A stretch of 64,000 nucleotides of DNA. Source: Calothrix sp. NIES-2098 (GTDB taxonomy: Bacteria > Cyanobacteriota > Cyanobacteriia > Cyanobacteriales > Nostocaceae). The stretch lies in the NCBI GenBank assembly GCA_002368175.1, contig AP018172.1, forward strand, positions 285,599 through 349,598. The letters run 5' to 3'. Position numbers and translations under genes: made by a program. This document shows, piece by piece, positions 4,567 to 51,981 of this stretch (positions within the stretch are counted from its first letter, which is position 1; each line of letters starts with the position of its first letter). A model generated the notes under the pieces. The model had not been told where the DNA came from, ran no database searches, and saw nothing but the letters and a program-made list of their open reading frames with translations.

Positions 4567-6612
4567 ATGAACTACTTACTCGTTAAATTTTACGCGGCAG
4601 TTCAAAAAGTCGCTAATACTTTCCTGTGCGGATTGCTGCAACTAAGAAACAAACACTTGTTAGTGTTTGATATAGTTTTGTTTGCAGTTACCCCATTATT
4701 AGCGCTAATTATTCGTTTAGACGGTGATTTTTCCTTAAACGCATACATCAAAGAGTTAGGCACTGCCACCATACTTTTTATAGCAGTCAAACTAACTTTA
4801 TTTTGGAATTTAGGTTTTTATAGACGTTACTGGCGCTATGCTAGTGTTGAAGAATTGACATACATAGCCATGTTGGTGTTGGCTGCGGTAGTCATTCAAA
4901 GTCTTTTATTTGATGTGCTTCAATATATACCTTATTTAAGCAGAGAAAAACTGCCACAATCGCTACCATTTATTGACGGATTACTTTCCTTTACCTTTAT
5001 TGGGGGCTTACGTTTCAGTGTACGAGCCGTAGAAAGAACTAGCCAAAAACAAGTATTTTTGAACCAACACGAAAGGGTGTTAGTAGTTGGTGCTGGAAGT
5101 GCAGGGGTATCCCTCGTCCAAGAAATGCAAAGAAGTCCCCAATTGGGTTTTTATCCTGTAGCTTACATTGATGACGATCCACAAAAATTAAACGTACACA
5201 TCCGTGGGATTCCAGTTATAGGCGATCGCTTCCAAATTCCTGAGGTTGTACAATCTCTCCAGATCCAAAAAGCGATCATTGCAATGCCAACAGTTGCAGG
5301 CAAAGTGATCCGGGAAATTGTCGATATTTGCAAAGCAAGTGGAGTTCAAACTTGCACATTACCTGGCATACATGAAATCCTCAACGGTCGTGTCCGAGTA
5401 GACAGCATTCGCGATGTCAGAATTGAAGACTTGCTCAGACGCGAATCTGTGCAGACAGATATTGAAAGAGTTGCCCAATTTATTGCTGGCAAGAAAGTCT
5501 TCATTACTGGTGCAGGTGGTTCTATTGGTAGCGAACTTTGCCGTCAAATATTTAACTGTCGTCCTGCGGAAATGATCCTGATTGGACATGGAGAAAACTC
5601 TGTCTTCAATATCCAACAGGAATTAGAACAACTGGTTCAAGTCATCAAACAAGATAGCCAAGTAAAACCGAATACCCCACGCATTTCTGCATTCATTGCT
5701 GATATTCGCTTTCGCTATCGCTTAGAACAAGCCTTTGAGCAATTCCAGCCGGATGTGATTTTTCATGCCGCAGCCCATAAGCACGTTCCGCTGATGGAAT
5801 TAAATCCAGCAGAAGCAATCACCAATAACGTCCTCGGCACCAAAAATCTGCTGGAACTGGCAAAGCAGTATGATGTCCAACATTTCGTGATGATCTCTAC
5901 AGACAAGGCAGTTAACCCTACCAATGTCATGGGTGCGAGTAAGCGAGTCGCCGAAATGTTAGTTCTGCAAACTGCCAGAGAGACTGGAAAGCCTTATGTA
6001 GCCGTGCGTTTTGGCAATGTGTTAGGCAGTCGTGGCAGTGTTGTTCCTACCTTCAAAAAACAAATTGCCGCAGGCGGGCCAGTAACCGTTACCCATCCCG
6101 ATATCTGCCGTTATTTCATGACAATACCAGAGGCAGTTCAACTAGTTTTGCAGGCTGTAGTACTGGGTCGCAGTGGGGAAGTATTAATGTTGAATATGGG
6201 CGAACCAGTGAAAATAGTCGATCTAGCCAAAGAACTAATTCACCTTTCGGGATATGAAGTCAACAAAGACATTGACATTGTATTTACAGGTTTACGACCG
6301 GGTGAAAAGTTATTTGAGGAACTATTTATTGAAGGAGAAGAATACGAACCAACTCCCCACGAAAAACTGTTTGTAGTGAAAAATGCTAGTCGAATTATTC
6401 CCGCAAATCTGAATGCGATCGTAGAAAATTTGTGTAAAGCAGCAGATAAAAACGATGGGGCTTTAATTAAATATTTAATTGGGCAATTAGTCACGGGATA
6501 TAGTCCAAAATCTTGGCAATCAGAAGCTCCAATCCATCTCACAACAACCGAGCCAAGAAATTCCGCTAATCAGATAGCTAAAGTAGGAAAAATGAAACCA
6601 CAAGGGGCTTAA
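4567..6612 (+). CDS. polysaccharide biosynthesis protein, CapD/WbpM/PglF-type membrane-anchored NDP-sugar 4,6-dehydratase/epimerase
   Basis: N-terminal multi-TM region. Two Rossmann motifs, VVGAGSAGV and FITGAGGSIGSEL. SDR-like catalytic region. First gene of the same-strand polysaccharide block. Confidence 0.8.
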   Translation: MNYLLVKFYAAVQKVANTFLCGLLQLRNKHLLVFDIVLFAVTPLLALIIRLDGDFSLNAYIKELGTATILFIAVKLTLFWNLGFYRRYWRYASVEELTYIAMLVLAAVVIQSLLFDVLQYIPYLSREKLPQSLPFIDGLLSFTFIGGLRFSVRAVERTSQKQVFLNQHERVLVVGAGSAGVSLVQEMQRSPQLGFYPVAYIDDDPQKLNVHIRGIPVIGDRFQIPEVVQSLQIQKAIIAMPTVAGKVIREIVDICKASGVQTCTLPGIHEILNGRVRVDSIRDVRIEDLLRRESVQTDIERVAQFIAGKKVFITGAGGSIGSELCRQIFNCRPAEMILIGHGENSVFNIQQELEQLVQVIKQDSQVKPNTPRISAFIADIRFRYRLEQAFEQFQPDVIFHAAAHKHVPLMELNPAEAITNNVLGTKNLLELAKQYDVQHFVMISTDKAVNPTNVMGASKRVAEMLVLQTARETGKPYVAVRFGNVLGSRGSVVPTFKKQIAAGGPVTVTHPDICRYFMTIPEAVQLVLQAVVLGRSGEVLMLNMGEPVKIVDLAKELIHLSGYEVNKDIDIVFTGLRPGEKLFEELFIEGEEYEPTPHEKLFVVKNASRIIPANLNAIVENLCKAADKNDGALIKYLIGQLVTGYSPKSWQSEAPIHLTTTEPRNSANQIAKVGKMKPQGA

Positions 6613-16618: not shown

Positions 16619-17263
16619 ATGATTACTGAGAATTTTCAAGGTGTTGATTCTACTGACTATAGTAGATTAATCAAATTTGTATTAGATAAAGTTGTAGCGG
16701 CGATCGCGCTCATTCTGTGCCTACCTGTAATTGTAATTGTGGCGATCGCTATTTACTACCGCATGGGTAGTCCTGTGATTTTTGCCCAACCTCGTCCCGG
16801 TCAAAACGGACGTATTTTTAAATTCTACAAGTTTCGCACTATGACCAATGAGCGCGATGCTAACGGTAATCTTTTACCCGATGCAAAACGCCTCACATCT
16901 TTCGGTAAATTTCTGCGAAAAACCAGTTTAGATGAACTTCCCCAACTGTTGAATGTTCTCAAGGGTGACATGAGTTTCGTTGGCCCGCGTCCTTTAATGG
17001 TCAAGTATCTTGACCGCTACACACCCGAACAAGCCCGCCGTCATGAAGTCAAGCCTGGGATTACCGGTTGGGCACAAGTTAACGGTCGCAATTCTATTTC
17101 TTGGCAAGAGCGATTCAAACTAGATATTTGGTATATCGATAATTGGAGTTGGTGGCTTGATTTAAAAATACTGTTTTTGACGGTATGGAAAGTACTTAAA
17201 AAAGAAGGAATTAGCCACGCTAATCATGACACCACGATGGAAGAATTTATGGGGAATAATTAA
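16619..17263 (+). CDS. initiating sugar transferase (bacterial sugar transferase / monotopic phosphoglycosyl transferase, WbaP/PglC-like)
   Basis: 214 aa with a single N-terminal TM helix. FVGPRPLM and [12 protein letters not shown] motifs. Confidence 0.8.
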
Positions 17264-17405: not shown

Positions 17406-18677
17406 ATGTTACATATAGTTTCAAAAAATAATTTTAAAATGACACTTACTTGGCAAACATTACAAAATTTAGAGCAAGAATACGGAGACTCTTTTTTTAT
17501 TCTGGATCTCAGACAATTTGAAAATAACTATAAAGACTTTCTTGAGAGTTTCCGCGCAATTTATCCAAATACCAACATAGGATATTCTTATAAAACTAAC
17601 TACATTCCCAAATTATGCCAAACGGTGCATTCTATGGGAGGGTATGCCGAAGTTGTTTCCCAAATGGAGTATGATTTAGCGATCGCTATCGGCGTACCAG
17701 CAAGCAGAATTATTTTTAACGGGCCGTTGAAGCAGCAACAAGATATTGAAAACGCTATCTTAGCTGGTTCTACAGTCAACTTGGACTGTTTAGAAGAAGT
17801 TGAAATAGTTACAGCTTTAGCACAAAGATTACCAGAAAAGCAGATAGCTGTAGGCTTGAGATGTAATTTTGATATCGGTGAGCATCGGATATCTCGATTT
17901 GGGTTTGATGTTGCAGCAGGCGAACTCGATCGTGCTTTTAAACGACTCACAGAATTCCAGAATTGTACTGTTGATGGGCTACATTGCCACATTTCTACAT
18001 CATCAAGAAGCACAGAATCCTATGCGCGTCGTACTCAGAAAATTTTGGAATTAACTGACTATTATTTTCAGGATAAACAACCAAGATTTATTGATATCGG
18101 TGGTGGTTTCTTTGGCAAAATGACTGAAGATTTAAGAAGTCAATTTGATTTTTATATTCCCAATTATCAGGAATACGCCGCAGCTGTTGCACCTCAATTA
18201 AAAAGCAGATATCCCGGTAACTCTGGCCCCGAACTAATTATTGAGCCAGGAGTAGCGATTGTTTCCGATGTGTTGAAATTTGCAGCTAAAGTCGTAGGCT
18301 TAAAAACAGTGCGATCGCGCCAAATCGCCCTAGTAGTTGGTAGCATCCACAACGTCAAGCCAACCGGAACCGATAAAACTCTGTCTTTCAAAATTTATCA
18401 AAACGATGAAAATAACAATAAAAAACTTGTAGGGACAGTGGACATAGTTGGATATACTTGTATGGAACATGATTGTTTATACAAGGAATATTCTGGAGAA
18501 ATAGCTATAGGAGATTACGTGGTTTTTGAGAACATTGGTGCCTATACTGTAGTTTTTAAACCACCATTTATTAGACCCAATCCTCCTATTATTAGCTATG
18601 ACTCTATTCTCGACGATTATTCACTAATTAGACGGCGCGAAACTTCTCAGGATGTGTTTTCTACCTATATCCTATAA
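17406..18677 (+). CDS. PLP-dependent decarboxylase, fold type III (Orn/DAP/Arg decarboxylase family)
   Basis: YSYKTNY lysine motif, TIM-barrel region, and a C-terminal beta-domain with GDYVVFENIGAYT. The track ORF begins at TTG 17385; ATG 17406 or 17439 is more plausible. Confidence 0.65.
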   Translation: MLHIVSKNNFKMTLTWQTLQNLEQEYGDSFFILDLRQFENNYKDFLESFRAIYPNTNIGYSYKTNYIPKLCQTVHSMGGYAEVVSQMEYDLAIAIGVPASRIIFNGPLKQQQDIENAILAGSTVNLDCLEEVEIVTALAQRLPEKQIAVGLRCNFDIGEHRISRFGFDVAAGELDRAFKRLTEFQNCTVDGLHCHISTSSRSTESYARRTQKILELTDYYFQDKQPRFIDIGGGFFGKMTEDLRSQFDFYIPNYQEYAAAVAPQLKSRYPGNSGPELIIEPGVAIVSDVLKFAAKVVGLKTVRSRQIALVVGSIHNVKPTGTDKTLSFKIYQNDENNNKKLVGTVDIVGYTCMEHDCLYKEYSGEIAIGDYVVFENIGAYTVVFKPPFIRPNPPIISYDSILDDYSLIRRRETSQDVFSTYIL

Positions 18678-18693
18678 GAGGTAAAAACTTGCT

Positions 18694-19707
18694 ATGAATG
18701 TCATATTAACTTGTGCAGGACGACGCAACTATCTGTTGAAATCCTTTCAAGAAGCACTAGGAAATCGCGGACAAGTATTTGCTGTTGATTCTAGTCTAGA
18801 AGCGCCAGCTTTACAAGAAGCAGATGAAGGTATTTTGTTACCGCCTATTTATCACAGCGATTACTTTGAGAGGTTATTAGATATCTGTCAGCAAAAACAG
18901 ATACGTTTGTTAGTGCCGCTGAACGATTTAGAATTACCCTACTTAGCAAAACAACGCGAGCTATTTCTGAAAATAGGCACTATTCCAGTTGTTTCTTCTC
19001 CAGAGGTTATAGAAATTTGTTTTGATAAGTTTGCTACTTTTCGATTTTTAGAGAATAACGATATTTCTTCGCCAAAAACTTATGTTTCTCTCAGCGCAGC
19101 CCAAGCAGCCATTCAAAGAGGAGAAATAACCTTTCCTTTAGTAGTCAAACCTCGCTGGGGGAGTGCATCAATTGGCATTGAATATCCAGAGGATCGTGAA
19201 GAATTAGAATTAGCTTATCGCTATGTAGCAAAAAAATTACATCGCACAGTTCTTGCAGATATTAGTGCAACTGATATTGAAAATTGTATTCTAATTCAAG
19301 AGCGAGTATTAGGTGAAGAATACGGTCTAGATATCATTAATGATTTAGATGGTAACTATATCACAACTTTTGTGAAACGTAAGTTGGGTATGCGCGCAGG
19401 AGAGACCGATCGCGCAGTCACAGTTGCAAATGAAAAACTACAAACTATCGGTCAGCAACTAGCGCAGAATCTCAGTCATATTGGCAATCTTGACTGTGAT
19501 GTAATTGTGAATTCTCAAGGTTGCTACGTCTTAGAATTAAACCCCCGCTTTGGTGGAGGCTACCCATTTTCACATTGTGCTGGCGCAAATCTACCAGCAA
19601 CATTAATAGCTTGGGCCAATGGTGTAGAACCAGACCCAAGTTGGCTGATGCTTGCAGCTAATGTTATCAGTTCAAAGTGCGATCGCTTAATCGTTCATCA
19701 ACAGTAG
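18694..19707 (+). CDS. ATP-grasp domain protein (carboxylate-amine ligase)
   Basis: MNVILTCAGRRNYLLKSF pre-ATP-grasp N-domain. ATP-grasp core FPLVVKPRWGSASIGI ... LELNPRFGGG. Confidence 0.7.
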   Translation: MNVILTCAGRRNYLLKSFQEALGNRGQVFAVDSSLEAPALQEADEGILLPPIYHSDYFERLLDICQQKQIRLLVPLNDLELPYLAKQRELFLKIGTIPVVSSPEVIEICFDKFATFRFLENNDISSPKTYVSLSAAQAAIQRGEITFPLVVKPRWGSASIGIEYPEDREELELAYRYVAKKLHRTVLADISATDIENCILIQERVLGEEYGLDIINDLDGNYITTFVKRKLGMRAGETDRAVTVANEKLQTIGQQLAQNLSHIGNLDCDVIVNSQGCYVLELNPRFGGGYPFSHCAGANLPATLIAWANGVEPDPSWLMLAANVISSKCDRLIVHQQ

Positions 19708-19721
19708 AAGGGAGTTGTGTT

Positions 19722-20378
19722 ATGGCGCAAGTTGTGATTTTTGGTACTAGTGAGATTGCAGAAATAGTTCACTTCTATCTCACCCATGATTCTGAACATG
19801 AAGTAGTAGCATTTACTGTTGATGAAGCTTATCTTCAGGCAGATAGTTTTCATGGTCTACCACTGGTTCCCTATGAAAAACTGGAAAAGTATTATCCACC
19901 TTCTGAATATAAATTGTTCGTTGCCATTAGTTATAAAAATGTCAACAAATTGCGGGCAGAAAAATATTTAGATGCCAAAAAGCGCGGCTATAGTTTTATT
20001 ACTTATATCAGTTCTCAAGCATCTTATCACGGTACACCAGTGGGGGAAAACTCCTTCATCTTTGAACATAGCGTCATCCAACCTTTTTCTGCCATTGGTA
20101 ACAACTGTCTGCTGTTTGGTGCAAATCATGTCAGTCACCACTGCGTCATTAAAGATCATTGCTTCTTAACTTCTAATGTTGTACTTGGTGGTGGCGCAAT
20201 TATCGAAGAATACACTTTTCTCGGTTTGAATGCTACCGTCCGCAATTATATTCATATCGGCAAAGAAAATATTATTGGTGCGGGAGCAATCATTCTCAGC
20301 AATACAGAAGACCAAGCTGTTTATTCTCCTGGTGAAACTCCCAAGTTTGATGTGCCAAGTAATTTCATTCGCATTTAA
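19722..20378 (+). CDS. hexapeptide-repeat acyltransferase, NeuD/PglD family
   Basis: N-terminal Rossmann-like MAQVVIFGTS followed by left-handed beta-helix hexapeptide repeats (LGGGAIIEEYTFLGLNATV). ATG 19722 is preceded by GAAGGGAG. Confidence 0.7.
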   Translation: MAQVVIFGTSEIAEIVHFYLTHDSEHEVVAFTVDEAYLQADSFHGLPLVPYEKLEKYYPPSEYKLFVAISYKNVNKLRAEKYLDAKKRGYSFITYISSQASYHGTPVGENSFIFEHSVIQPFSAIGNNCLLFGANHVSHHCVIKDHCFLTSNVVLGGGAIIEEYTFLGLNATVRNYIHIGKENIIGAGAIILSNTEDQAVYSPGETPKFDVPSNFIRI

Positions 20379-20598
20379 CAATTTTGGCTGCAAGTTGAGA
20401 TTTTAAATCTTGATTTTCGATAGTTATTTAATATTTAAAATCTCAACCTCCTTAATTAAATCCGGCTATAGGCATAGTATTTGATTGCAAAGCTAAATAT
20501 AAATCATAAAAATTGCCTAAAACCTGTATGCGCAAGTCTGTTCTAAATCAAATTCCTCATATAGCTAGACAGAAAGCATTTCTTTGACAAGCAGTGTT

Positions 20599-21726
20599 AT
20601 GCGTATTCATTCCCTCCATCTCAAACACAAAAGGCGTAATTTCCTTCGCTTGGCTGGACTAGCAGCGGGAGCAGCAATTTCTCCCTATATTTTTTCTACT
20701 CTGAAAACATCTGGTTTTTCCCCTAACTCCGTTCTGCACACCCTGAAAACATCTGGATCGATTTTGAATGCTACTCATGCCAAGAATGCTAATGCCAAGA
20801 AAGTGGTGCCATTACCACCGCCGAATGGTGTGAGCAAAGTTGTCATAGTCTACGACGAAGATCGGGTATCGGGAACGCGCCGCGCTCTCGATTTGTTGCA
20901 ACCCAACGGTGTTCAGGGAAAAAGCATTTTCCTCAAGCCTAACTACAATACTGCCGATCCGGCTCCAGCAGCTACAGATACCAAATTATTAGAAGCTTTG
21001 GTGCAAGAGCTACAAAATGCTGGCGCAGGAAAAATTACTATCGGCGATCGCTCTGGTATGGCAGACACCCGTCAGGCGATGGAAATGAAAGGAGTTTTTA
21101 AACTGGCAGATCGCTATGGGCTAGAGGCGATCGTGTTGGATGAGTTGCCTACTGCGCAGTGGCAATACTTTTCTTCACAAGGAACTCACTGGCAAGCAGG
21201 TTTCGCCTTTGCCCGTCCCGTTCTAGAAGCAGAAGCAGTTGTCACTACCTGTTGTCTAAAAACTCATCAGCAAGCGCATTATACCCTGTGCCTAAAAAAT
21301 ACCGTAGGCATGGTAGCGAAGTATGTTCCCGGAGATCCATTTAACTATATGCGCGATCTGCATACTTCACCCCATATGCAACCGATGATCGCCGAAATTA
21401 ATGCTGTCTATCAGCCTACTTTTGTGTTGATGGATGGTGTCGAAGCTTTTGTCAACGGGGGGCCGGATTTCGGTAAGAAGGTGCCAGCAAACGTAATTTT
21501 GGCAAGTACAGATCGGATCGCTATGGATGTTGTTGCTTTAGGAATGTTGCGCTCTTTAGGCACAACAAATCACGTAGCACGAGGATCTATTTGGCAGTTA
21601 GAACAGATCCGCAGAGCGATTGAATTGGGGGTAGGGGTGTCTACAGCAGAACAAATTGAACTAGTGACTGCTGACAGTGACAGTCAAAAAATTGCCGATA
21701 AAATTCGCCAATATATATTGGCATAA
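20599..21726 (+). CDS. DUF362-domain protein with twin-arginine (Tat) signal peptide
   Basis: MRIHSLHLKHKRRNFLRLAGLAAGAA is a Tat motif; the remainder resembles DUF362. The start is taken at ATG 20599; the track ORF begins at TTG 20584. Confidence 0.5.
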   Translation: MRIHSLHLKHKRRNFLRLAGLAAGAAISPYIFSTLKTSGFSPNSVLHTLKTSGSILNATHAKNANAKKVVPLPPPNGVSKVVIVYDEDRVSGTRRALDLLQPNGVQGKSIFLKPNYNTADPAPAATDTKLLEALVQELQNAGAGKITIGDRSGMADTRQAMEMKGVFKLADRYGLEAIVLDELPTAQWQYFSSQGTHWQAGFAFARPVLEAEAVVTTCCLKTHQQAHYTLCLKNTVGMVAKYVPGDPFNYMRDLHTSPHMQPMIAEINAVYQPTFVLMDGVEAFVNGGPDFGKKVPANVILASTDRIAMDVVALGMLRSLGTTNHVARGSIWQLEQIRRAIELGVGVSTAEQIELVTADSDSQKIADKIRQYILA

Positions 21727-21840: not shown

Positions 21841-24800
21841 ATGATGAATCTGCAAAAAGAACTACCTATATCGAGTTTGTCTTGTTTCGTAGTCGGTGAT
21901 GGTGTTCTGCCATTAAGTTGCTTGGAAATTCTGTTACAGAAAGGTTGGCAAGTGCTGGGAATTTATTCAATGGATAATTCCTTGCAAAAGTGGGCGCAAG
22001 AACATGGCATCAACCACGCTGCTTCTCGAACCGATTTTAACGCACAACTTTTGAGCAACCAGTACGATTATCTTTTCAGCATTAATAATGTCAAGTGGAT
22101 TATTCCCGCTGATGTAATTGCCCAGGCACGCAAAGCAACCATTAACTACCACGACTCACCATTGCCAAAGTATGCTGGCTTGTATGCGACTTCTTGGGCT
22201 TTGCTGAATGGTGAAACCAATCATGCTGTCACCTGGCACGAAGTTACCTGTGAAATTGATGCCGGACGGATATTAAAACAGCAAGAAGTGCCAATTTTGG
22301 CAGATGATACCGTATTTATGCTGAATACTCGCTGCTTCGATGCCGCAGTCAAATCTTTTGACGAACTGGTAACGGAATTAGCAACAGATAAAGTGCAGCC
22401 TTATCCCCAGGATCTATCTCAACGGAGTTATTTTGGCCTCAGCGATCGCCCACCCTCAGCGGGGATAATATCATTTGATGACAGTAGTAAAGATATTTGT
22501 AACCTGGTCAGAGCGCTAGAGTTTGGGCCAGTTGCCAACCAACTAGGTGTGGCTAAACTTTGGTTGCCAGGAGGAGTAGTTGCTGTAGGATCTGCCCGTT
22601 TAACCAAAACTTCCCAAGGCATTCCCGGACAGGTGCTGAATCTAGATGCCGATGGGTTGCACGTTGCTACCGTGGATGGCGCGGTGCAATTGAGTAAGTT
22701 CGCTACTTTAAATGGCAAAGAACTCTCTGTAGACAACTTGAGTGAAGATTATGGTGTGGTAGTCGGTAATGTTTTACCTGTAATTGATGCCGCTACCAAA
22801 GATGCAATTAGCCAGCGTAATGCTGCTATCTGTCGTTATGAAACGACATGGGCAGAACGGTTAAAGACATTAGCGCCGTTTCAGCATCCTTATTTACCAG
22901 TGGAACTATCTAGCCAAACAGGAGATAGTCCCCTGCACCGTTATTCCATCTCGCTACCAACTCCACAGCTAGAGCCGAAATCCCTGTTAACAATGTTTGC
23001 CGCCTACTGTGCGCGGCTGACAACCGAGGCAGAATTTGACTTAGGGCTGCAAACCAACGCACAGCGCAGCATTGCACCAGAGATATTTGCCCAACGGGTG
23101 CCGATCCGCATTCAAGTGCAGCCTGAAGAGTCGTTCGATCGATTCCAAGAACGGCTGACAGTGGATCTAGATCGGACATCGCGGCTGGGTAGTTTTAGAA
23201 ATAGCTTGTTAAGACGTTATCCAGAACTGCAAGCAAATTCTCAAAATCATTTTCTCCCGGTAGCGATCGCTCTAGTTCCCAGCCCCGATCGACTCGATTG
23301 GCAGCATCTCAATGCAACTATTGCCTTGGTGGCTTACGAAGATGGTAGCTTACCAGAAGTGGTACATACAGGCGCAATTAATGACTTTTACAGTCAGGCG
23401 ATCGCCCAACAACTTCAGAGTTTAATCGCTGCGTGCATTGAGCATCCCCAACAACCTCTGGCGCAACTACCACTACTTTCCGCAGCCGAACAGCAGCAAA
23501 TTTTGGTGGAGTGGAACCAGACAGCACAACCCTTTCCCAGCTATCTGTGCATCCACGAGCTATTTGAGCAGCAAGCAGCCAAAACTCCGGATGCGATCGC
23601 TGTTGTTTTTGGCGCGCAACAGCTCACCTACCGAGAATTAAATGAAAAAGCCAATCAACTAGCCCACTATCTGCGGCTTTGTGGAGTTGGCCCCGATGTT
23701 TTGGTAGGTTTGCACGTGGAGCGATCGCTGGAAATGATAATTGCGTTACAGGGAATCCACAAAGCCGGTGGCGCATATCTGCCCCTTGACCCCGACTTTC
23801 CCCACGATCGGCTGGCTTTCATGTTGCAAGATTCTCAAACGCCAGTTATCGTGACGCAGCAGAAGTTGATTTCCAATTTGCAGGTGGAACGCGATGTTCG
23901 CATTGTTCCCATAGATACGATGTGGAGCGAAATTGCCCAACAACCTACCAGCAATCCCCATAGTGGAGTTAAACCGGAGAATTTAAGCTACATCATCTAC
24001 ACTTCCGGTTCCACAGGTAAGCCCAAGGGCGTGATGGTAGAGCATCGCAATGTAGTCAACTTCTTTACTGGTATGGATGATGTAATTGATCGCGATCCAC
24101 TAGGAGTCTGGTTGGCAGTCACCAGTTTATCCTTCGATATTTCCGTATTGGAACTATTCTGGACTCTGGCGCGGGGCTTTAAGGTCGTCATCTATAATCC
24201 CAAGGCAGAACGCGCCCGTTCTACTTCCCAGAAGTTAAAGCTACAACATGAATCGAAAACCATCGATTTTAGTCTGTTTTACTTCTCCAGCCACGAACAA
24301 GGCGAAGATGCCGCTGCCAAGTATCGGCTATTATTTGAAGGTAGCAAATTTGCCGATCGCAACGGGTTTACTGCTATCTGGACTCCCGAACGCCACTTCC
24401 ACGCCTTTGGTGGCTTATTCCCCAACCCCGCCCTCACCAGTGCCGCGATCGCCACAGTTACCAACCAGATTCAAATACGCGCTGGTAGTTGTGTGTCTCC
24501 ATTACATAGCCCAGTGCGTATTGCCGAAGATTGGTCTGTAGTCGATAACTTCTCCCGCGGTCGAGTAGGCATCTCCTTCGCCGCTGGCTGGCAACCCAAT
24601 GACTTTGTGCTGCGTCCCGAAACCTTTGAGAACCGTAAAGACATCATGTTCCAGCAAATTGAGGAGGTACGGGCACTCTGGCGCGGGGAAACTGTCAACT
24701 ATCCCAACGGTAAGGGAGAAATGGTGGCAGTGCAGACACTTCCGCGTCCGATTCAGCCCGAACTCCCAATCTGGATTACAGCAGCAAGCAATCCGGAAAC

Positions 24801-26454
24801 ATTCCAGATGGCAGGAGCCAAAGGCTATCATATCTTGACCCATCTGCTAGGGCAAAGCCTGGAAGAGTTAGCAGCGAAAATTGCCATTTATCGTCAAGCC
24901 TGGGCAGAAAATGGTCATCCCGGTAAAGGCACTGTCACCCTGATGCTGCACACTTTCGTCGGGGAAAATGATGATGCAGTCAAAGAAATTGTCCGTCAGC
25001 CGATGCGGCATTACCTGGCTAGTTCTCTCGATTTGATTAAAAAAGCCGCTTGGTCATTCCCGACGTTTAAGCAGAAAACTACTAACGACAACGGTCAATT
25101 CTCGGTATCTCATCTATCTGACCGAGATAAGGATGAAGTGTTGGACTTCTCCTTTGAGCGTTACTTTGAAACTAGCGGTTTGTTTGGCACAATAGAAACC
25201 TGTTTGCAGATGGTCGATCGCATCAAAGGTATTGATGTCGATGAAATTTCCTGCCTTATTGATTATGGTGTCGAGACAGAAAAAGTATTAGCCCAATTGC
25301 CACTGCTGAATCAGGTGAAAGCACAAGCCAATGGCCAGGCAGGAAATCCAGAGCAGACACAAGATTACTCTATAGCTGACCTCATCAAGCAGCATCAAGC
25401 CACCCATCTGCAATGCACGCCATCAATGGCTAGTATGCTGATTGCCGATAGCACGGCTCGCGAAGCTATAAGACAGATAAAGACGATGATGGTTGGCGGT
25501 GAAGCCTTTACCGAAGCCTTAGCCGAGCAACTCAAACAAATTATTCCGGGGCAGATTCACAATATGTACGGCCCCACAGAAACCACCATCTGGTCTACAA
25601 CTCATACGCTGACAGAGGTGAATGGAGTGGTGCCCATTGGCAGAGCGATCGCCAACACTGAGTTGTACATTCTAGATAAGCATCGGCAACCCGTGCCAGT
25701 AGGCATGGCGGGCGAACTACTCATCGGTGGTAAAGGAGTGACTCGCGGCTATCTCAACAGGCCAGAGTTAACCCAAGAAAGGTTTATTCCCAATCCCTTC
25801 AACAACAATCCAGAGGATCGCCTTTACCGTACCGGAGACTTGGTGCGTTACCGCATGGATGGCAATCTAGAGTTTTTAGGACGCATAGACTTTCAGGTAA
25901 AAGTCCGGGGCTACCGGATTGAACTGGGAGAAATTGAGACGATTTTAAGCCGACATGAGGCAGTGCGAGAAGCCGTAATTGTGGTTCGTGAAGATGTGCC
26001 TGGGGACAAGCGCCTTGTCGCCTATATATTGCCACAACCGGGAAATCAACCCGCCCATGCCACTCTGCGAGAATATCTACTCTCCCAATTGCCAGAGTAC
26101 ATGGTGCCCTCTAATTTCGTCGTGCTGGAAGCATTTCCTCTGACACCAAACAATAAAGTTGACCGCAAGGCATTACCTGCTCCGATCGCGGTGCTACAGG
26201 ATAGCGAGCCTGTCAGAACCACAATGCCTCAAACCGAAATTGAGCAAACCCTGACTGAAATCTGGCAGAAAGTGCTGCAAGTCTCGCAAGTGGGAATCAA
26301 AGACAACTTCTTCGATCTGGGGGGAAATTCCTTAGTTGCAGTCACATTAATGTCGGAAATTCGCTCCGCGTTTAATGTCAACTTACCCTTGATTAGCTTG
26401 TTCCGATCTCCCACCATACCCGGAATTGCCAAAGAGATTGAGGTATGTACATGA
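21841..26454 (+). CDS. NRPS-like protein: formyltransferase domain, partial (C-terminal) condensation domain, adenylation domain with an inserted luciferase-like monooxygenase (LLM) domain, and PCP
   Basis: Residues 1-300 carry Fmt/ArnA-like motifs (HDSPLPKYAGL, Fmt C-terminal domain). LPLLSAAEQQQILVEWNQT is a C-A linker. A-domain motifs: A3 LSYIIYTSGSTGKPKGV, A4 FDISVLELF, then about 450 aa of LLM (FSLFYFSS...GISFAAGWQPNDF...LMLHTFVGEND), then A5 NMYGPTETT, A7 YRTGDL, A8 GRIDFQVKVRGYRIELGEIE. The PCP motif is FFDLGGNSL. Confidence 0.8.
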   Translation: MMNLQKELPISSLSCFVVGDGVLPLSCLEILLQKGWQVLGIYSMDNSLQKWAQEHGINHAASRTDFNAQLLSNQYDYLFSINNVKWIIPADVIAQARKATINYHDSPLPKYAGLYATSWALLNGETNHAVTWHEVTCEIDAGRILKQQEVPILADDTVFMLNTRCFDAAVKSFDELVTELATDKVQPYPQDLSQRSYFGLSDRPPSAGIISFDDSSKDICNLVRALEFGPVANQLGVAKLWLPGGVVAVGSARLTKTSQGIPGQVLNLDADGLHVATVDGAVQLSKFATLNGKELSVDNLSEDYGVVVGNVLPVIDAATKDAISQRNAAICRYETTWAERLKTLAPFQHPYLPVELSSQTGDSPLHRYSISLPTPQLEPKSLLTMFAAYCARLTTEAEFDLGLQTNAQRSIAPEIFAQRVPIRIQVQPEESFDRFQERLTVDLDRTSRLGSFRNSLLRRYPELQANSQNHFLPVAIALVPSPDRLDWQHLNATIALVAYEDGSLPEVVHTGAINDFYSQAIAQQLQSLIAACIEHPQQPLAQLPLLSAAEQQQILVEWNQTAQPFPSYLCIHELFEQQAAKTPDAIAVVFGAQQLTYRELNEKANQLAHYLRLCGVGPDVLVGLHVERSLEMIIALQGIHKAGGAYLPLDPDFPHDRLAFMLQDSQTPVIVTQQKLISNLQVERDVRIVPIDTMWSEIAQQPTSNPHSGVKPENLSYIIYTSGSTGKPKGVMVEHRNVVNFFTGMDDVIDRDPLGVWLAVTSLSFDISVLELFWTLARGFKVVIYNPKAERARSTSQKLKLQHESKTIDFSLFYFSSHEQGEDAAAKYRLLFEGSKFADRNGFTAIWTPERHFHAFGGLFPNPALTSAAIATVTNQIQIRAGSCVSPLHSPVRIAEDWSVVDNFSRGRVGISFAAGWQPNDFVLRPETFENRKDIMFQQIEEVRALWRGETVNYPNGKGEMVAVQTLPRPIQPELPIWITAASNPETFQMAGAKGYHILTHLLGQSLEELAAKIAIYRQAWAENGHPGKGTVTLMLHTFVGENDDAVKEIVRQPMRHYLASSLDLIKKAAWSFPTFKQKTTNDNGQFSVSHLSDRDKDEVLDFSFERYFETSGLFGTIETCLQMVDRIKGIDVDEISCLIDYGVETEKVLAQLPLLNQVKAQANGQAGNPEQTQDYSIADLIKQHQATHLQCTPSMASMLIADSTAREAIRQIKTMMVGGEAFTEALAEQLKQIIPGQIHNMYGPTETTIWSTTHTLTEVNGVVPIGRAIANTELYILDKHRQPVPVGMAGELLIGGKGVTRGYLNRPELTQERFIPNPFNNNPEDRLYRTGDLVRYRMDGNLEFLGRIDFQVKVRGYRIELGEIETILSRHEAVREAVIVVREDVPGDKRLVAYILPQPGNQPAHATLREYLLSQLPEYMVPSNFVVLEAFPLTPNNKVDRKALPAPIAVLQDSEPVRTTMPQTEIEQTLTEIWQKVLQVSQVGIKDNFFDLGGNSLVAVTLMSEIRSAFNVNLPLISLFRSPTIPGIAKEIEVCT

Positions 26455-28298
26455 AACTATCCAAAATATTTTTAGCAATTCTCGCACTCATGACTGTAGT
26501 TGTATGTCAAAGCGGTGTATCACAAAAAAATGTGTCAGCTTTAGCAAAAAGAACAGTCATAGATAATGAAAGAGGATTTTACTATGTATCTCCCTATGAT
26601 GGCGACTGGTCAAAAGTAGGGGCTTATATAGGCCTCGCTCATTATAATACTTTCGCAGCCATGAATCGCGAAGCTATAGCCGGAATTCACGGACGGTTTC
26701 AACACTTTCATGCTGATGATGTCAACAGATATGCCTATTTTCCCTACAACGAGTTAAAGAAATACGAAACTGATGAGTTAGCTCGTGGTCGCCCTCCCCT
26801 CTGGATTACTGCTACCTATAACGGTCAAAAGCGACCTGTAATTTTTGAGTGGTTATCAAAAGAAAAAGCGCAGGCAGTAAACTTTACTGACGAACGTTAC
26901 ATTAATTTTTTTATTAATAAATATGTACGTCAGAAACTGCAAAAACAAACCTATCAAAATCTGTGGTTAGGATTGGACAATTGTGCTTTTAAGTACGAAC
27001 TTTATGGCGTGTTCGACGCTCAAGGCAGGTTTGTAAATAACATCAAATGGGATGAGCCATTTCCTCAAAACGATCGGGAATTTTTGCAGGCAGGAAAGTA
27101 TTTCTTTAAACGTTTAAAGGAACTAGCACCGGATATTAAGACAATTTGTAATGAAGGTAGTGTATCCGATGAAAGCCAGTACAATGAAGTTTTTGCCAAT
27201 ACTGACGGAGTAATATTAGAAAATTTCCTCGGCGAGATATATGGCTCAGATGGCGATTATGTCAGGTTGAAATATTATCGTTCTTATCAGCGAATGAAGA
27301 ATTTTGCAGCCAATAAAGTGCAGATTTATCAACCGCGTCTAGACAAGCCAGAAAAAACTATTAGCAGTATGTACCTCGCCTACTTAATTTTTGCAGGAGA
27401 GAATCGCTTTTTCAGCCCTTATAAGAACGATAGCGAGGAAATTGACCCAAAACAGTATGCCGAAATTAAAAACACGCTGGGTGCGCCTACTGCTGAAGCA
27501 AAAGATGAAAAAGAACCGGGTAAAGGTGATGGTTATCGCCTCTATTCGAGAGCTTGTGAAGGTGGAATTGCCTATTTCAATCTGACAGGAAAAACTCAGA
27601 CTATCAATCTACCATCTGGTAAACAATACTTCGATCGCGATGGGAATCTCGTAACGCGCATCAGTATCAAAGATAAAGAAGCAAAATATGTACTCTTTAC
27701 ACCTGGGGCGCGAGTAGCAAAACCTGCCATTAATCCAGTTAGACCCAGCACTGTTAATGGTTCAGTTGCTGTGACGCTCAGTACAACAACTCCTGGTGCA
27801 ACTATTAGGTACACTCTAGATAATAGCGAACCCAATAAAAATTCTCCGATCTACACTAGCCCTATTAAGTTAACTAGTAATGTCACCGTCAAAGCAAAGG
27901 CATTTAGCTTAAATGCCCGTGAAAGCTTTGTTTCTGCTGCTGCTTATAAAATTACCAACCAAATCCCCAGCGCAGAATTCCACTTGAGTTCGGCAAGCGG
28001 TAGTGAATTTATTAATGTAGATTATCCATTGGTAAAACTGAGTAATCCATCAGCAGAACCTGTAACAATTAACTACTCAGTGACAGGTGGCACGGCTAGC
28101 GTTGATGTAGACTACAAGATGGTAACTGGCACGCTGACATTCATGCCAGGAGAAATATACAAGTACTTTCCGATTGCAATAATCAATGACAATAAAGCAG
28201 AAAATAATGAGACTATAAAAGTGACGCTCTCTAGCGCCAAAAATTCAACCTTGGGAAGTAACAAATCATATACATATACCATCAACGATAACGATTAA
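26451..28298 (+). CDS. secreted protein with C-terminal Fn3/chitobiase-like and Calx-beta domains; N-terminal domain unknown (possible glycoside-hydrolase-like)
   Basis: Signal peptide MKLSKIFLAILALMTVVVC. C-terminus VDVDYKMVTGTLTF...NDNKAENNETIKVTL is Calx-beta-like. The ATG overlaps the NRPS-like gene's TGA (ATGA). Confidence 0.45.
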   Translation: MKLSKIFLAILALMTVVVCQSGVSQKNVSALAKRTVIDNERGFYYVSPYDGDWSKVGAYIGLAHYNTFAAMNREAIAGIHGRFQHFHADDVNRYAYFPYNELKKYETDELARGRPPLWITATYNGQKRPVIFEWLSKEKAQAVNFTDERYINFFINKYVRQKLQKQTYQNLWLGLDNCAFKYELYGVFDAQGRFVNNIKWDEPFPQNDREFLQAGKYFFKRLKELAPDIKTICNEGSVSDESQYNEVFANTDGVILENFLGEIYGSDGDYVRLKYYRSYQRMKNFAANKVQIYQPRLDKPEKTISSMYLAYLIFAGENRFFSPYKNDSEEIDPKQYAEIKNTLGAPTAEAKDEKEPGKGDGYRLYSRACEGGIAYFNLTGKTQTINLPSGKQYFDRDGNLVTRISIKDKEAKYVLFTPGARVAKPAINPVRPSTVNGSVAVTLSTTTPGATIRYTLDNSEPNKNSPIYTSPIKLTSNVTVKAKAFSLNARESFVSAAAYKITNQIPSAEFHLSSASGSEFINVDYPLVKLSNPSAEPVTINYSVTGGTASVDVDYKMVTGTLTFMPGEIYKYFPIAIINDNKAENNETIKVTLSSAKNSTLGSNKSYTYTINDND

Positions 28299-28385: not shown

Positions 28386-29006
28386 ATGAGTAACCAAAGA
28401 ATCGGGATAATCGGAGCTGGAGGCCATGCCAAAGTTGTAGCAAGTACGGCGATTGCTGCGGGATACAAAGTGGTAGGTTTTTATGACGATGACCCACAAA
28501 CATGGGGCAGTCATATTTTTGACATCCCCGTTGTTGGGCCAATTAGCGAGCTGACGTCTCAAAGTTGTTCTCATGCAATCCTGGGTATAGGCTCTAACGA
28601 AGTCCGGAAGCGTCTGGCAGAAAAGCTCAATCTTGAGTGGATTACTGTGGTTCATCCCTTCGCTTGGGTTCATCCCGAAGTTTCATTAGGTGTAGGTACA
28701 GTTGTTTGTGCAGGTGCAATAGTTCAGCCCTATGCACAAATTGGTTCCCATGTGATTCTGAATACTAAGGCCAGCGTCGATCATGACTGCTATGTAGGAG
28801 ATTACGTACATATAGCTGTGTCCCATTTGGCAGGTGGTGCATCCGCAGAAGAGGGTGCATTTCTGGCGCTGGGTAGCGTTGTGTTTCCTGGTGTTCGGGT
28901 TGGAGCTTGGGCTACGGTGGGTGCAGGGGCAATAGCGAGAAAAGACGTGCCGCCAAAAACCATCGTAGCAGGGGTGCCTGCCAGAGTAATTAGAGAAGTT
29001 TCGTAG
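28386..29006 (+). CDS. hexapeptide-repeat sugar acyltransferase, NeuD/PglD/PglB family
   Basis: MSNQRIGIIGAGGHAKVV Rossmann-like N-terminus, then beta-helix repeats (IVQPYAQIGSHVILNTKASVDHDCYVGDYVHI). Confidence 0.75.
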   Translation: MSNQRIGIIGAGGHAKVVASTAIAAGYKVVGFYDDDPQTWGSHIFDIPVVGPISELTSQSCSHAILGIGSNEVRKRLAEKLNLEWITVVHPFAWVHPEVSLGVGTVVCAGAIVQPYAQIGSHVILNTKASVDHDCYVGDYVHIAVSHLAGGASAEEGAFLALGSVVFPGVRVGAWATVGAGAIARKDVPPKTIVAGVPARVIREVS

Positions 29007-29353: not shown

Positions 29354-30892
29354 ATGAAGATTACTTCTTTAGGTCACGCAGGTCTCCAGCTAGAACTCAA
29401 AAGTGCTAAATTACTGGTCGATCCGTGGCTTTCTCCAGAGGGAGCGTTTTTAAGTTCGTGGTTTCAATATCCTGATAACCAACATTTGATGGCATCTCTA
29501 GCGCTGCAACCAACTGCGATCGCTCTTTCTCACGAGCATTTAGACCACGTCGATCCTTGGTTTCTCGCCCAACTACCACCAGAGACACCGACGATTATTC
29601 CCCGTTATCCCTCGCCAGTATTAAAACAGAAAATTGCCGCAGCTGGACTAAAGAACATTATAGAAGTACCGCAGTGGCAATCAATACAAATAACTGAAGA
29701 AATTAGCGTGTTCTTTGTCTCAGAAGAGTCACCGATGAACCACGATTCAGCTGTGGTAATTGTGGGTGAGGGACAGACACTCATCAATCTCAATGATGCG
29801 CGCTTGTCAGTAGCTCAACTACGCAACATCCGTACTAAAGTGGGTGGAGTAATTGATGTGTTAGCACTGCAAGGTGCAGGAGCTTCTTGGTATCCTATCT
29901 GCTATGAGTACCCAGAAAGCCGCAAAAAAGAACTTTCCCAGCGCAAGCGCATAGCTAAGTTCAACTATCTCAAACGAGCGATCGCAGCTGTTGAACCAGT
30001 CAATATTATTCCTTTTGCCGGGCCTCCTTGTTTTCTAGATGCAGAACTGACTTGGGTAAATGCTGAGATGGAAGAGGGCATTTTTCCCGATCTAGAGCAG
30101 GTAATAAATTGGCTCAAAGAGAGAGAAATTCACAATACTGTGAGTTTGCTACCAGGTGATGCTTTTGATATCGCTAGCAAGCAAAAACAAGCCGATCCGA
30201 TCTGGAGTGATTTTTGCTTTAGTCAGCGTGCTTCTTACCTCAAAGACTATGCTGCGCGTAGAACTGCCAACATTGCCGCCTTGAAAGCTCGTTATCCCCA
30301 ACCTACCGAGTCTCTTTACCCGCCATTCCGAGACTATTTTCAGAACTTATTAGCAATGAGTCCCTACTTCAACAGTAAAATTGGGATGCGAATTGGCTTT
30401 GAGATTACAGGCCCGGGTGGAGGAAAATGGGCAGTCGATTTTCGCTCTGGGAAAGAAGGAGTGGATGACGAGATGGGTGAATGTAGCTATGGATATCGTT
30501 TCGCATCAAGATGGCTACCTTCATTATTGGATGGTTCCTTACCTTGGGAAGACTTTTTTCTATCTTTACGATTTGAGGTATGGCGAAATCCAGATATCTA
30601 TAATGACCATCTTTTAGGACTCCTGAAATTTGCTTGTCCCCAATCCTTGCAAGCTGTGGAAGAATACGAAAATGCAATGGATTCCCAAGAGCAGATTACA
30701 ATTCACTGCGAAGGAGATAATTACTTAGTACAGCGCCATTGTCCCCATGCAGGTTTTGACTTGCAGGAGGTAGGAGAAGTATTACCTGGAGGAATTTTGC
30801 GCTGTTTAGGTCATCATTACGAGTTTGATTTAAATACAGGAAAATGCCTCAACGGCAAATGCAACTTACTTAGCAGCAAGCGGATTAATTAG
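29354..30892 (+). CDS. metallo-beta-lactamase-fold protein fused to a C-terminal Rieske [2Fe-2S] domain
   Basis: N-terminus MKITSLGHAGLQLE...LLVDPW and HEHLDHVD are the MBL motif. The C-terminus has CPHAG...CLGHHYEF, a Rieske CxH...CxxH arrangement. Confidence 0.65.
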   Translation: MKITSLGHAGLQLELKSAKLLVDPWLSPEGAFLSSWFQYPDNQHLMASLALQPTAIALSHEHLDHVDPWFLAQLPPETPTIIPRYPSPVLKQKIAAAGLKNIIEVPQWQSIQITEEISVFFVSEESPMNHDSAVVIVGEGQTLINLNDARLSVAQLRNIRTKVGGVIDVLALQGAGASWYPICYEYPESRKKELSQRKRIAKFNYLKRAIAAVEPVNIIPFAGPPCFLDAELTWVNAEMEEGIFPDLEQVINWLKEREIHNTVSLLPGDAFDIASKQKQADPIWSDFCFSQRASYLKDYAARRTANIAALKARYPQPTESLYPPFRDYFQNLLAMSPYFNSKIGMRIGFEITGPGGGKWAVDFRSGKEGVDDEMGECSYGYRFASRWLPSLLDGSLPWEDFFLSLRFEVWRNPDIYNDHLLGLLKFACPQSLQAVEEYENAMDSQEQITIHCEGDNYLVQRHCPHAGFDLQEVGEVLPGGILRCLGHHYEFDLNTGKCLNGKCNLLSSKRIN

Positions 30893-30901
30893 GTGATGCA
30901 A

Positions 30902-32047
30902 ATGAATAAACAAATTCTGCTTTCAACCCCTCACATGGGCGATCGCGAACTCGAATTCGTCCAAGAAGCCTTTGCAACTAACTGGATAGCCCCTGTTGGC
31001 CCCCATGTCGATGCTTTTGAACAGGAATTTTGTCAAGTTACTGGTGCGGGTTATGCGGCGGCTGTCAGTTCGGGGACAGCAGCTATTCATTTAGCTTTGC
31101 GATTAATTGGGGTGGAATCGGGAGATGAAGTTTTTTGTTCGACGCTGACCTTTGCGGCTACTGCTAATCCGATAGTTTATCAGGGAGCCAAACCAGTATT
31201 TATTGATAGCGATCGCACTTCTTGGAACATGAATCCCGATTTGTTGCAAGCAGCCCTAGAACACCGCGCCCGCATTGGCAAATTACCCAAAGCAGTTGTG
31301 CTAGTACATTTATACGGGCAAAGTGCAGACATCGATCCGATCCTCAAAGCTTGCGATCGCTATGAAATTCCTTTAATTGAAGATGCAGCAGAAGCCTTAG
31401 GTGCTACCTACAAAGGCCGACATCCTGGAACCTTTGGCAAAATTGGTATTTATTCCTTCAACGGCAATAAAATTATCACTACATCTGGCGGTGGGATGTT
31501 AGTTTCAGATGACCCAGATTTAGTTAAAAAAGCCCGATTTCTCGCCACTCAAGCCCGCGATCCGGCACCTCATTACCAACATTCAGAAATAGGCTTTAAC
31601 TATCGCCTCAGCAATGTTTTGGCAGGGATTGGTCGGGGTCAATTGCAAGTTTTAAGCGATCGCGTCGCCGCTAGACGCCGCAACTTTGAGATTTACCAAC
31701 AAGCTTTAGGAAAGTTGCCAGGAATCGAATTCATGCCAGAAGCCAGTTTTGGACGTGCTACCCGTTGGCTGACTTGCCTGACCATCAATCCCCAGGTTTT
31801 TGGTGCAGATCGAGAACAAGTACGCCTAGCACTTGCCGCACAACAAATTGAAGCCCGTCCTGTCTGGAAACCTTTGCACCTCCAGCCCGTATTTGCTAAC
31901 TGTGAAGCTATTGGTGGTAGTGTAGCAGAAGAATTATTTACACAGGGTCTTTGCTTGCCTTCAGGCTCGAATCTCACAGACGAAGATTTAGAGCGAGTAA
32001 TTAATGCGATCGCCAAAATGCACCATCCTATAGAACAACTCATTTGA
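30902..32047 (+). CDS. DegT/DnrJ/EryC1/StrS-family PLP-dependent sugar aminotransferase
   Basis: LSTPHMGDRELEFVQEAF, SGTAAIHLAL, and the catalytic lysine region FSFNGNKIITTSGGG. Alternative starts are at 30893 and 30896. Confidence 0.85.
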   Translation: MNKQILLSTPHMGDRELEFVQEAFATNWIAPVGPHVDAFEQEFCQVTGAGYAAAVSSGTAAIHLALRLIGVESGDEVFCSTLTFAATANPIVYQGAKPVFIDSDRTSWNMNPDLLQAALEHRARIGKLPKAVVLVHLYGQSADIDPILKACDRYEIPLIEDAAEALGATYKGRHPGTFGKIGIYSFNGNKIITTSGGGMLVSDDPDLVKKARFLATQARDPAPHYQHSEIGFNYRLSNVLAGIGRGQLQVLSDRVAARRRNFEIYQQALGKLPGIEFMPEASFGRATRWLTCLTINPQVFGADREQVRLALAAQQIEARPVWKPLHLQPVFANCEAIGGSVAEELFTQGLCLPSGSNLTDEDLERVINAIAKMHHPIEQLI

Positions 32048-47094: not shown

Positions 47095-47145
47095 TTAGCA
47101 ATTCAAACTTTCTGCGCCTCTGCGCCTTTGCGCGATCCAAATCCC

Positions 47146-50074: not shown

Positions 50075-50545
50075 ATGCCTAATTCATCGTTTATAGCTTC
50101 CAGCCAGAAAAATGCTCCAACCAAGCGGGATGTGAAGCAGGTTCCGTTTGTTGAGTTATTTAATCATCGCGTCCAGGGAGTAGTTTCTAGCGGTTCTGAT
50201 ATTGAACGGGTTTACGTTTCTTTTTTTGAAGCAGGAACGTTAGATTTTTATTGCAGTACAAATAACAATCGTCCTTGCGGTGGTTTGGGAGGCTATCCCT
50301 GCAAACATTTACAAGCTTTGATGAAAGAAGCGATCTCAGCTTACGGTATTGACCAAGTAATTAATTATCTTAAGGTTCCTGGCGACCTCAATCAAATTAC
50401 CTCCCCCCAGGATATTCTCAACCGTCGCGGTACAGTCAAAAAAGAACCAGCCAGCGAAGTCTTCAGCCGCTTTTTAAACTATCTCCGCTACCTAGAATTA
50501 CAAACCTCCAACTCTCCTCTCCCTGAAATGAGTTGGTTTGTTTAA
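50075..50545 (+). CDS. SWIM zinc-finger domain protein
   Basis: YCSTNNNRPCGGLGGYPCKHLQAL fits the CxC-x(n)-CxH SWIM signature. Confidence 0.55.
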   Translation: MPNSSFIASSQKNAPTKRDVKQVPFVELFNHRVQGVVSSGSDIERVYVSFFEAGTLDFYCSTNNNRPCGGLGGYPCKHLQALMKEAISAYGIDQVINYLKVPGDLNQITSPQDILNRRGTVKKEPASEVFSRFLNYLRYLELQTSNSPLPEMSWFV

Positions 50546-50583
50546 TCATCGTTAGCTTTAATTTTGAATTTTGAATTGTAAAC

Positions 50584-51972: not shown

Positions 51973-51981
51973 GGAAAAATC

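Follow-up and report, generated by a model that had tools for sequence, protein, structure and literature searches.

The window analysed here is a 64,000-nucleotide stretch of the Calothrix sp. NIES-2098 genome (contig AP018172.1, positions 285,599 to 349,598). It holds a Wzx/Wzy-type polysaccharide locus between positions 4.5 and 35.5 kb, within which a gene for a fold-III pyridoxal phosphate (PLP) decarboxylase (17406..18677, + strand) lies directly ahead of one for an ATP-grasp carboxylate-amine ligase (18694..19707, + strand). The reading we favour, to which we give about an even chance, is that the two enzymes form a cassette predicted to tailor the repeat unit's first sugar at its 4-amino group. 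On 2,4-diamino-2,4,6-trideoxyhexoses, it is largely the N-acyl groups that set the charge, antigenicity and immune recognition of bacterial surface glycans, and to our knowledge most of the enzymes that install non-acetyl N-acyl groups have yet to be found. The Calothrix locus suggests a testable route, in which ligation by the ATP-grasp enzyme and then decarboxylation by the PLP enzyme would yield an omega-aminoacyl, cationic first sugar.

An earlier note on this DNA had described three consecutive genes behind an initiating sugar transferase, and both the order and the assignments are borne out by the open reading frames and their domain matches. The third gene (19722..20378, + strand) encodes a left-handed beta-helix (LbH) N-acyltransferase resembling NeuD, PglD and PerB. 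The three genes are spaced 14-16 nt apart and lie directly 3' of a gene for a small monotopic PglC-type phosphoglycosyltransferase (PGT) of 214 aa (16619..17263, + strand), which matches the full Bac_transf profile with an E-value of 4.9e-70. The same locus encodes a membrane-anchored UDP-HexNAc 4,6-dehydratase of the PglF/CapD/WbpM type (4567..6612, + strand; Polysacc_synt_2, 2e-118, and CoA_binding_3), which falls under the cutoffs of the PseB and FnlA models, and a sugar 4-aminotransferase of the DegT/LegC family (30893..32047, + strand; DegT_DnrJ_EryC1, 2.5e-102), which scores 394.8 bits against the LegC family model TIGR04181 (cutoff 420).

The decarboxylase comprises a PLP barrel (PF02784, Orn_Arg_deC_N; 1.4e-31) and a C-terminal beta-sheet domain (PF00278, Orn_DAP_Arg_deC; 1.7e-07), and carries the motifs YSYK63TNY and GAYT, as had been pointed out before. 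Its open reading frame can be taken from 17385 or 17406, and the NCBI start at about 17439 gives a protein of 412 aa; it is 100% identical to a protein annotated in Calothrix sp. NIES-2098. Residues K63, H195, GGG232-234, E280, C352, E354, D356 and Y380 are invariant across 13 members of the family, and the catalytic set (the PLP lysine, the histidine of HxH, the GGG loop, the glutamate of EPG and the proton-donor cysteine) aligns with those of FslC, the Francisella enzyme of rhizoferrin synthesis, and of diaminopimelate decarboxylases (DAPDCs). The sequence EPGVA lacks the arginine of EPGR, the form across the family being EPG[V/S/I]A. The DAPDC distal-site motif CE[S/T]xD, which reads CETGD and CESSD in the enzymes of Aquifex and M. 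jannaschii in our motif comparison, is TC[M/I]ExD in this family (TCMEHD in Calothrix); the acidic residue that follows the catalytic cysteine in DAPDCs is a methionine or isoleucine here, and FslC is alike in this respect (SCMQHD).

Against curated models, the decarboxylase scored 156.9 bits for LysA (TIGR01048; 5.4e-46, cutoff 297.9), 141.1 bits for FslC (NF041039; cutoff 500) and 26 bits for carboxynorspermidine decarboxylase, and the identities LysA, ornithine decarboxylase and carboxynorspermidine decarboxylase were rejected on the curated cutoffs. Among solved structures the best match is FslC (PDB 7kh2, 1.9e-32), and BtrK of butirosin biosynthesis also matches (5e-17). At least 558 genome stretches from many phyla contain a match to the family at 43-86% identity, and in essentially all genomes sampled the gene sits within a polysaccharide locus. 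The Calothrix protein is a member of an uncharacterised, widespread, polysaccharide-locus-specific family of fold-III PLP enzymes.

The ATP-grasp protein scores 464 bits against NF009404 (PRK12767.1-3; cutoff 316), with matches to PylC-like_N (1.7e-26), ATP-grasp_3 (1.7e-14) and ATP-grasp_4, and it conserves residues of the ATP- and Mg-binding type (K152, E203, E281, N283 and R285). D-Ala-D-Ala ligase (Ddl; TIGR01205, 40.9 bits, cutoff 245.65) and RimK (TIGR00768, 45.2 bits, cutoff 143.4) were rejected as identities, both scores being far under the curated cutoffs. Its best structural relative is PDB 2pn1 (2.7e-47). This is the sole solved structure of the family, of unknown function, and it would gain a plausible role if the ligase is, as we predict, an N4-acylase of a UDP-4-amino sugar resembling Pyl of Bacillus cereus. 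In Exiguobacterium a 2pn1 homologue borders a polysaccharide locus, but neither a decarboxylase nor a DegT or PGT gene adjoins it, and this context was uninformative. Family searches that started from a Clostridiales homologue and from the 2pn1 sequence did not have B. cereus among the matches listed, and a literature search for an ATP-grasp enzyme together with a decarboxylase in a polysaccharide or O-antigen context found nothing. Natural fusions occur in other genomes: members of the family are joined to DegT (L028:2580-4940, 786 aa; L093:5792-8053, 753 aa) and to a PGT (protein P0184), which ties the ligase to the amino-sugar pathway and points to a nucleotide-sugar substrate. Further fusions join it to a PglD-like domain (L141:8001-9656), a FemAB-like domain (L113:1067-3199) and a GNAT domain (protein P0138).

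Neighbouring genes were clustered in 77 decarboxylase loci from cyanobacteria, Chloroflexi, Actinobacteria, Verrucomicrobia, Planctomycetes, Firmicutes and others. Directly next to the decarboxylase gene lies a small PGT gene in 39 of the 77 loci and an ATP-grasp gene of the Calothrix type in 32, the latter spread over at least five phyla; because it recurs in so many independent loci, the adjacency of decarboxylase and ATP-grasp cannot be put down to chance. A DegT gene lies within 7 kb in 33 of the loci, usually right behind the ATP-grasp gene. The arrangement we call Type A runs PGT, decarboxylase, ATP-grasp, DegT. One Bacillus genome has the order decarboxylase, ATP-grasp, PglF, FemAB-like, DegT. 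We also examined the neighbourhoods of the ATP-grasp gene in 80 metagenome loci (L084-L163; 42-64% identity), where the usual order is a glycosyltransferase of family GT4, PGT, a variable cassette, ATP-grasp, DegT and PglF. The ligase is encoded together with DegT, a 4,6-dehydratase and a small PGT in the window, in genome loci (80) and in metagenome loci (80). The conserved partners of the decarboxylase are the genes of a 4-amino-sugar pathway (small PGT, DegT/LegC and PglF), not dehydrogenases.

The pathway that we propose draws on domain identities, catalytic motifs, synteny and gene fusions, and we infer each of its chemical steps. Going by family membership, PglF and the LegC/PglE-like DegT enzyme would convert UDP-GlcNAc to UDP-2-acetamido-4-amino-2,4,6-trideoxyhexose. 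With ATP, the ATP-grasp enzyme would join the 4-amino group of this sugar in an amide to a dicarboxylic amino or oxo acid, by way of the acid's distal carboxylate; L-glutamate or 2-oxoglutarate is the most likely acid, with aspartate and diaminopimelate as alternatives. The decarboxylase would strip the alpha-carboxylate, either from the tethered residue or from the free acid before ligation, and both orders would give the same product, an omega-aminoacyl group such as 4-aminobutanoyl that bears a new primary amine. If the sugar supplies the amine, only dicarboxylic amino acids (aspartate, glutamate, aminoadipate and those of the diaminopimelate type) could be both ligated and decarboxylated, and this constraint would limit the class of product whichever enzyme acts first. 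By analogy with Pyl and with BtrJ and BtrK of the butirosin pathway, we weakly favour a 4-aminobutanoyl group derived from glutamate or 2-oxoglutarate. The small PGT would then shift the finished sugar-1-phosphate to polyprenyl phosphate; for the monotopic-PGT field, this sugar is a predicted new substrate class.

The variable cassette of the metagenome loci (for example L121:2272-3195, L104:3202-5372 and L084:9135-10394) encodes enzymes that modify amino acids or oxo acids. It can hold a PLP enzyme like D-cysteine desulfhydrase or CuyA (22 loci), a GNAT protein (18), a flavin monooxygenase (6), a second subfamily of fold-III decarboxylases, FemAB-like proteins, or a class I/II aminotransferase together with a D-2-hydroxyacid dehydrogenase. 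Such variety suggests that N4-acyl groups are drawn from a combinatorial toolbox. The dehydrogenase and aminotransferase genes adjoin the ATP-grasp gene in two loci where the encoded ligase is 50-60% identical to that of Calothrix, an arrangement consistent with 2-oxo, hydroxy and amino-acid chemistry taking place on the acid that is attached.

Several points weigh against this proposal. Which acid is attached is a guess, and the likeness of the ligase to Pyl (Bc5272) is drawn from family and context only. In Calothrix the DegT gene is not adjacent to the cassette but 11 kb further downstream, and the locus encodes two acyltransferases of the PglD/NeuD type that could acetylate the same 4-amino group. 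Ornithine or lysine joined as an amide to a sugar carboxylate would be just as compatible with the logic of FslC. Finally, about one-third of the decarboxylase loci are without any ATP-grasp gene, so the decarboxylase does not depend strictly on that partner.

A broader form of the proposal, which we advance tentatively and hold to be the less probable, is that the decarboxylase family acts directly on alpha-amino acids tethered to a nucleoside diphosphate (NDP) sugar, and that three routes lead to first sugars decorated with aminoalkyl groups. In Type A loci the link would be an amide made by the PRK12767-type ATP-grasp enzyme. Type B loci have the order PglF, HpcH/HpaI-like aldolase, decarboxylase, small PGT and IlvE-like class IV aminotransferase, without an ATP-grasp gene, and number about 27 in Firmicutes, Bacteroidetes, Colwellia and one archaeon (L045, L047, L051, L059, L061 and L063-L081; for example L063:9160-9993 and L069:11447-12376). 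On one reading of them, the HpcH-like aldolase would add pyruvate to a 4-keto sugar, and transamination by the IlvE-like enzyme and decarboxylation would leave a C4-branched aminoethyl sugar. Type C loci, from Kiritimatiellia, Verrucomicrobia and Methylococcales, run ArnC-like glycosyltransferase of family GT2, NeuD-like gene, a gene for a different ATP-grasp protein of 400 aa, decarboxylase, a small open reading frame and DegT (L035, L037, L038, L042-L044, L048, L050 and L060). Here the amide would be formed by the different ATP-grasp enzyme, with the ArnC-like enzyme acting next. The element constant over the three types is the enzyme that passes the first sugar to the lipid carrier. If this broader form is true, the family would include the first known fold-III PLP decarboxylase to use an NDP-sugar substrate, and hundreds of species would make cationic or zwitterionic polysaccharides. 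As a separate observation, Type C resembles the Arn-type pathway for modification with a lipid-linked amino sugar.

The earlier note had placed the amide elsewhere, on a uronic acid of the polymer. On this alternative, the ATP-grasp enzyme would couple an amine produced by the decarboxylase to a uronic acid at C6, whether the uronate is part of the polymer or still a nucleotide sugar; in a variant after the fashion of FslC, the decarboxylase would act on ornithine or lysine whose side-chain amine is by then in the amide link. Campylobacter jejuni Cj1438 offers a precedent (PMC11800397), the solved structure closest to the decarboxylase is that of FslC, and a TviB-like UDP-HexNAc 6-dehydrogenase gene lies within 7 kb in 7 of the 77 loci, although never within two genes. 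In the window, however, no UDP-sugar 6-dehydrogenase domain (UDPG_MGDP_dh) was found among the annotated open reading frames of at least 120 aa. The gene at 34502-35452 (- strand), which the note had called UDP-glucuronate 4-epimerase-like and cited for its reading, lies beyond Wzc on the opposite strand and reaches no equivalog model: LegB (166 bits), TviC (155), GalE (153) and dTDP-glucose dehydratase (within 153-166) give near-equal scores far under their cutoffs, and we reject the specific assignment in favour of a generic extended short-chain dehydrogenase/reductase. The conserved partners and the fusions to DegT and PGT described above also point away from a uronate, and the minimal Type A loci, of PGT, decarboxylase, ATP-grasp and DegT (as in Cylindrospermum NIES-4074, L016), hold no gene able to make one. 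A uronic acid acceptor is accordingly poorly supported, and we consider this alternative unlikely; what survives of the earlier idea is that the polymer plausibly carries an amide-linked group derived from a decarboxylated amino acid.

Nor do the three genes hold together as the unit in which they had been presented. The NeuD-like protein, whose longest open reading frame begins at 19677, scores 160.6 bits (3.5e-47) against the NeuD/PglB/VioB model TIGR03570 (cutoff 160.8) and 21.0 against PglD_N (cutoff 23.4); it matches Hexapep at 8.7e-12 and, among solved structures, PerB (PDB 4ea7, 4e-10) and PglD (1e-8). In cyanobacteria its gene occurs only alongside a gene for a large protein resembling nonribosomal peptide synthetases (NRPS-like), in six of six loci, and it is missing from most Type A loci. 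In Aulosira, a block made up of the NeuD-like gene, a DUF362 gene, the NRPS-like gene and a PglD gene is inserted between ATP-grasp and DegT. We therefore reject the trio as one evolutionary unit for cyanobacteria, where the NeuD-like gene tracks the NRPS-like one. Elsewhere, LbH acyltransferases are fused to related ATP-grasp genes or adjoin them.

The NRPS-like protein of Calothrix (21841..26454, + strand; 1537 aa) was delineated with Pfam, TIGR01733 and TIGR04020. It consists of a sugar-N-formyltransferase-like domain, an adenylation domain split by a luciferase-like monooxygenase, and a thiolation (T) domain, a layout abbreviated F-A(MOx)-T. The N-terminus is nearest to ArnA (3e-17) and GDP-perosamine formyltransferase (9e-15), with LgrA at 5e-5; the amino-acid adenylation model TIGR01733 gives 460 bits and the MupA/Atu3671-type monooxygenase model TIGR04020 gives 512 bits. 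In the six cyanobacterial loci a DUF362 gene usually accompanies it too. The Calothrix DUF362 protein (20584..21726, + strand; 1.6e-41) has a twin-arginine-like N-terminus, its sequence including RRNFLRLAGLAAGAA, and its homologues are co-located with NeuD-like and NRPS-like genes in L002, L007 and L010. The weak inference that we draw is that the NeuD-like enzyme probably caps an amine with an acetyl group or with an aminoacyl group from the 1537-aa protein. More speculatively, it may move a T-bound aminoacyl group, or acetyl, to the amine of the sugar or of the new side chain.

The proximity of these genes invites a second alternative, modelled on butirosin, in which the ATP-grasp enzyme would play the part of BtrJ, reportedly an ATP-grasp enzyme, and load glutamate on the T domain of the NRPS-like protein. 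In the role of BtrK, the decarboxylase would convert it to 4-aminobutyryl-S-T, the luciferase-like monooxygenase would hydroxylate it in the manner of BtrO, and the NeuD-like enzyme would transfer the acyl group to an amino sugar. All the parts (ATP-grasp, fold-III decarboxylase, T domain, luciferase-like monooxygenase and acyltransferase) are contiguous in the window, and the match to the BtrK structure is significant. Yet 28 of 34 Type A loci have neither a carrier protein nor an NRPS-like gene, the T domain has its own amino-acid adenylation domain, and the ATP-grasp::DegT and PGT::ATP-grasp fusions indicate a nucleotide-sugar substrate, so that we regard a carrier-bound route as improbable. 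That the two enzymes are housekeeping proteins in the locus by chance, a LysA or polyamine decarboxylase and a Ddl- or RimK-type ligase, is scarcely credible: generic matches to lysA, Ddl and RimK speak for it, but every equivalog cutoff is missed widely, which disposes of the housekeeping identities that the earlier note had said would refute its reading, the decarboxylase family keeps to polysaccharide loci, and the DAPDC distal motif and the EPGR arginine are both missing.

The remaining genes of the locus include Wzx (7802), an FkbM methyltransferase (9119), four GT4 glycosyltransferases (10058, 12891, 14090 and 15271) and Wzc (32153). Next to PglF lies a gene for a GINT1_N protein (6727-7728, + strand; 4e-66), named for the N-terminal domain of the eukaryotic glucosamine-inositolphosphorylceramide transferase 1, and a homologue also stands beside PglF in L017. 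The gene at 26445-28298 (+ strand), which overlaps the 3' end of the NRPS-like gene by 10 nt, encodes 617 aa with domains of the chitobiase C-terminal, Fn3-associated and Calx-beta types; both this protein and the DUF362 protein appear extracytoplasmic, and they are encoded amid cytoplasmic sugar-tailoring genes. The second PglD-type N-acetyltransferase (28386..29006, + strand) is canonical, with 199 bits against TIGR03570 and 2.1e-18 against PglD_N. Between it and DegT, a 512-aa protein (29354-30892, + strand) combines a metallo-beta-lactamase fold, an SCP2-like domain and a C-terminal Rieske [2Fe-2S] domain; its stop codon abuts the DegT start, and its gene is missing from the Aulosira version of the locus. 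Beyond the polysaccharide locus, three groups of genes may serve in defence or repair. The first encodes an XPB-like helicase and its DUF790 partner (45559-48360), the second a 462-aa protein of unknown function followed by a VWA/CoxE-like protein, an AAA_5 ATPase and a DUF5682 protein of 940 aa (50075-57679), and the third an SMC_N/AAA_23 ATPase (60932-62719).

Four known systems bear on the proposal that the Calothrix cassette acylates a 4-amino sugar and decarboxylates the acyl group. In C. jejuni HS:2, as is proposed for Calothrix, an ATP-dependent amide ligase and a PLP decarboxylase decorate a capsule sugar with an amine-derived group: the C-terminal domain of Cj1438 amidates glucuronate with amines from the PLP enzymes Cj1436 and Cj1437 (PMC11800397). 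The acceptor there is the glucuronate carboxylate, whereas no uronate pathway is present among the annotated open reading frames of at least 120 aa in the window, nor is one conserved across the 77 loci; moreover, Cj1438, compared here by its description, acts as a domain of a large glycosyltransferase.

FslC, the nearest solved relative of the decarboxylase, shares with it the motif C-M-x-H-D and decarboxylates N-citrylornithine, where the distal end of the amino acid is held in an amide bond before the enzyme acts. It differs in keeping the arginine, in ELGR as against EPG[V/S/I]A, and the Calothrix enzyme stays far below the cutoff of the FslC model; the ligase partner of FslC is an NIS synthetase rather than an ATP-grasp enzyme, and the context there is a siderophore. 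In butirosin synthesis, glutamate is tethered at its gamma-carboxylate by an ATP-grasp enzyme, after which a fold-III decarboxylase yields 4-aminobutyryl; PDB 7ru7 (BtrK) is titled 'L-glutamyl-[BtrI ACP] decarboxylase', and the substrate is gamma-glutamyl bound as a thioester to the acyl carrier protein (ACP). Whereas the butirosin tether is this ACP thioester, for Calothrix we propose a nucleotide sugar as the tether, through its 4-amino group; the resemblance of the decarboxylases goes no further than 5e-17, and most of the related loci are without a carrier protein. Since FslC and BtrK both act on distally tethered amino acids, they provide a precedent for a decarboxylase that works on a tethered residue.

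The closest parallel is the Pat/Pyl pair of B. cereus ATCC 14579 (Bc5273/Bc5272, UDP-yelosamine). According to PMC11626204, Pat, of the DegT type, and Pyl, an ATP-grasp enzyme, make UDP-FucNAc-4N-(2-oxoglutaryl) beside a small PGT, and Pyl is the one characterised ATP-grasp enzyme known in such a genomic setting. Pyl is described as ligating 2-oxoglutarate to the 4-amino group of the UDP-4-amino-FucNAc supplied by Pat (Hwang et al. 2014, PMID 25368324, as cited in PMC8987622 and PMC4595770). Like B. cereus, Calothrix encodes a DegT-type aminotransferase, an ATP-grasp ligase and a small PGT in a polysaccharide locus. In B. cereus the 2-oxo acid reportedly ends as 2-hydroxyglutaryl, and no decarboxylase is described for that system, whereas in loci of the Calothrix type a fold-III decarboxylase is the tightly linked partner. 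Read in this light, the cassette would be a widespread variant of Pyl-type N4-acylation, with a decarboxylation step that it is predicted to add.

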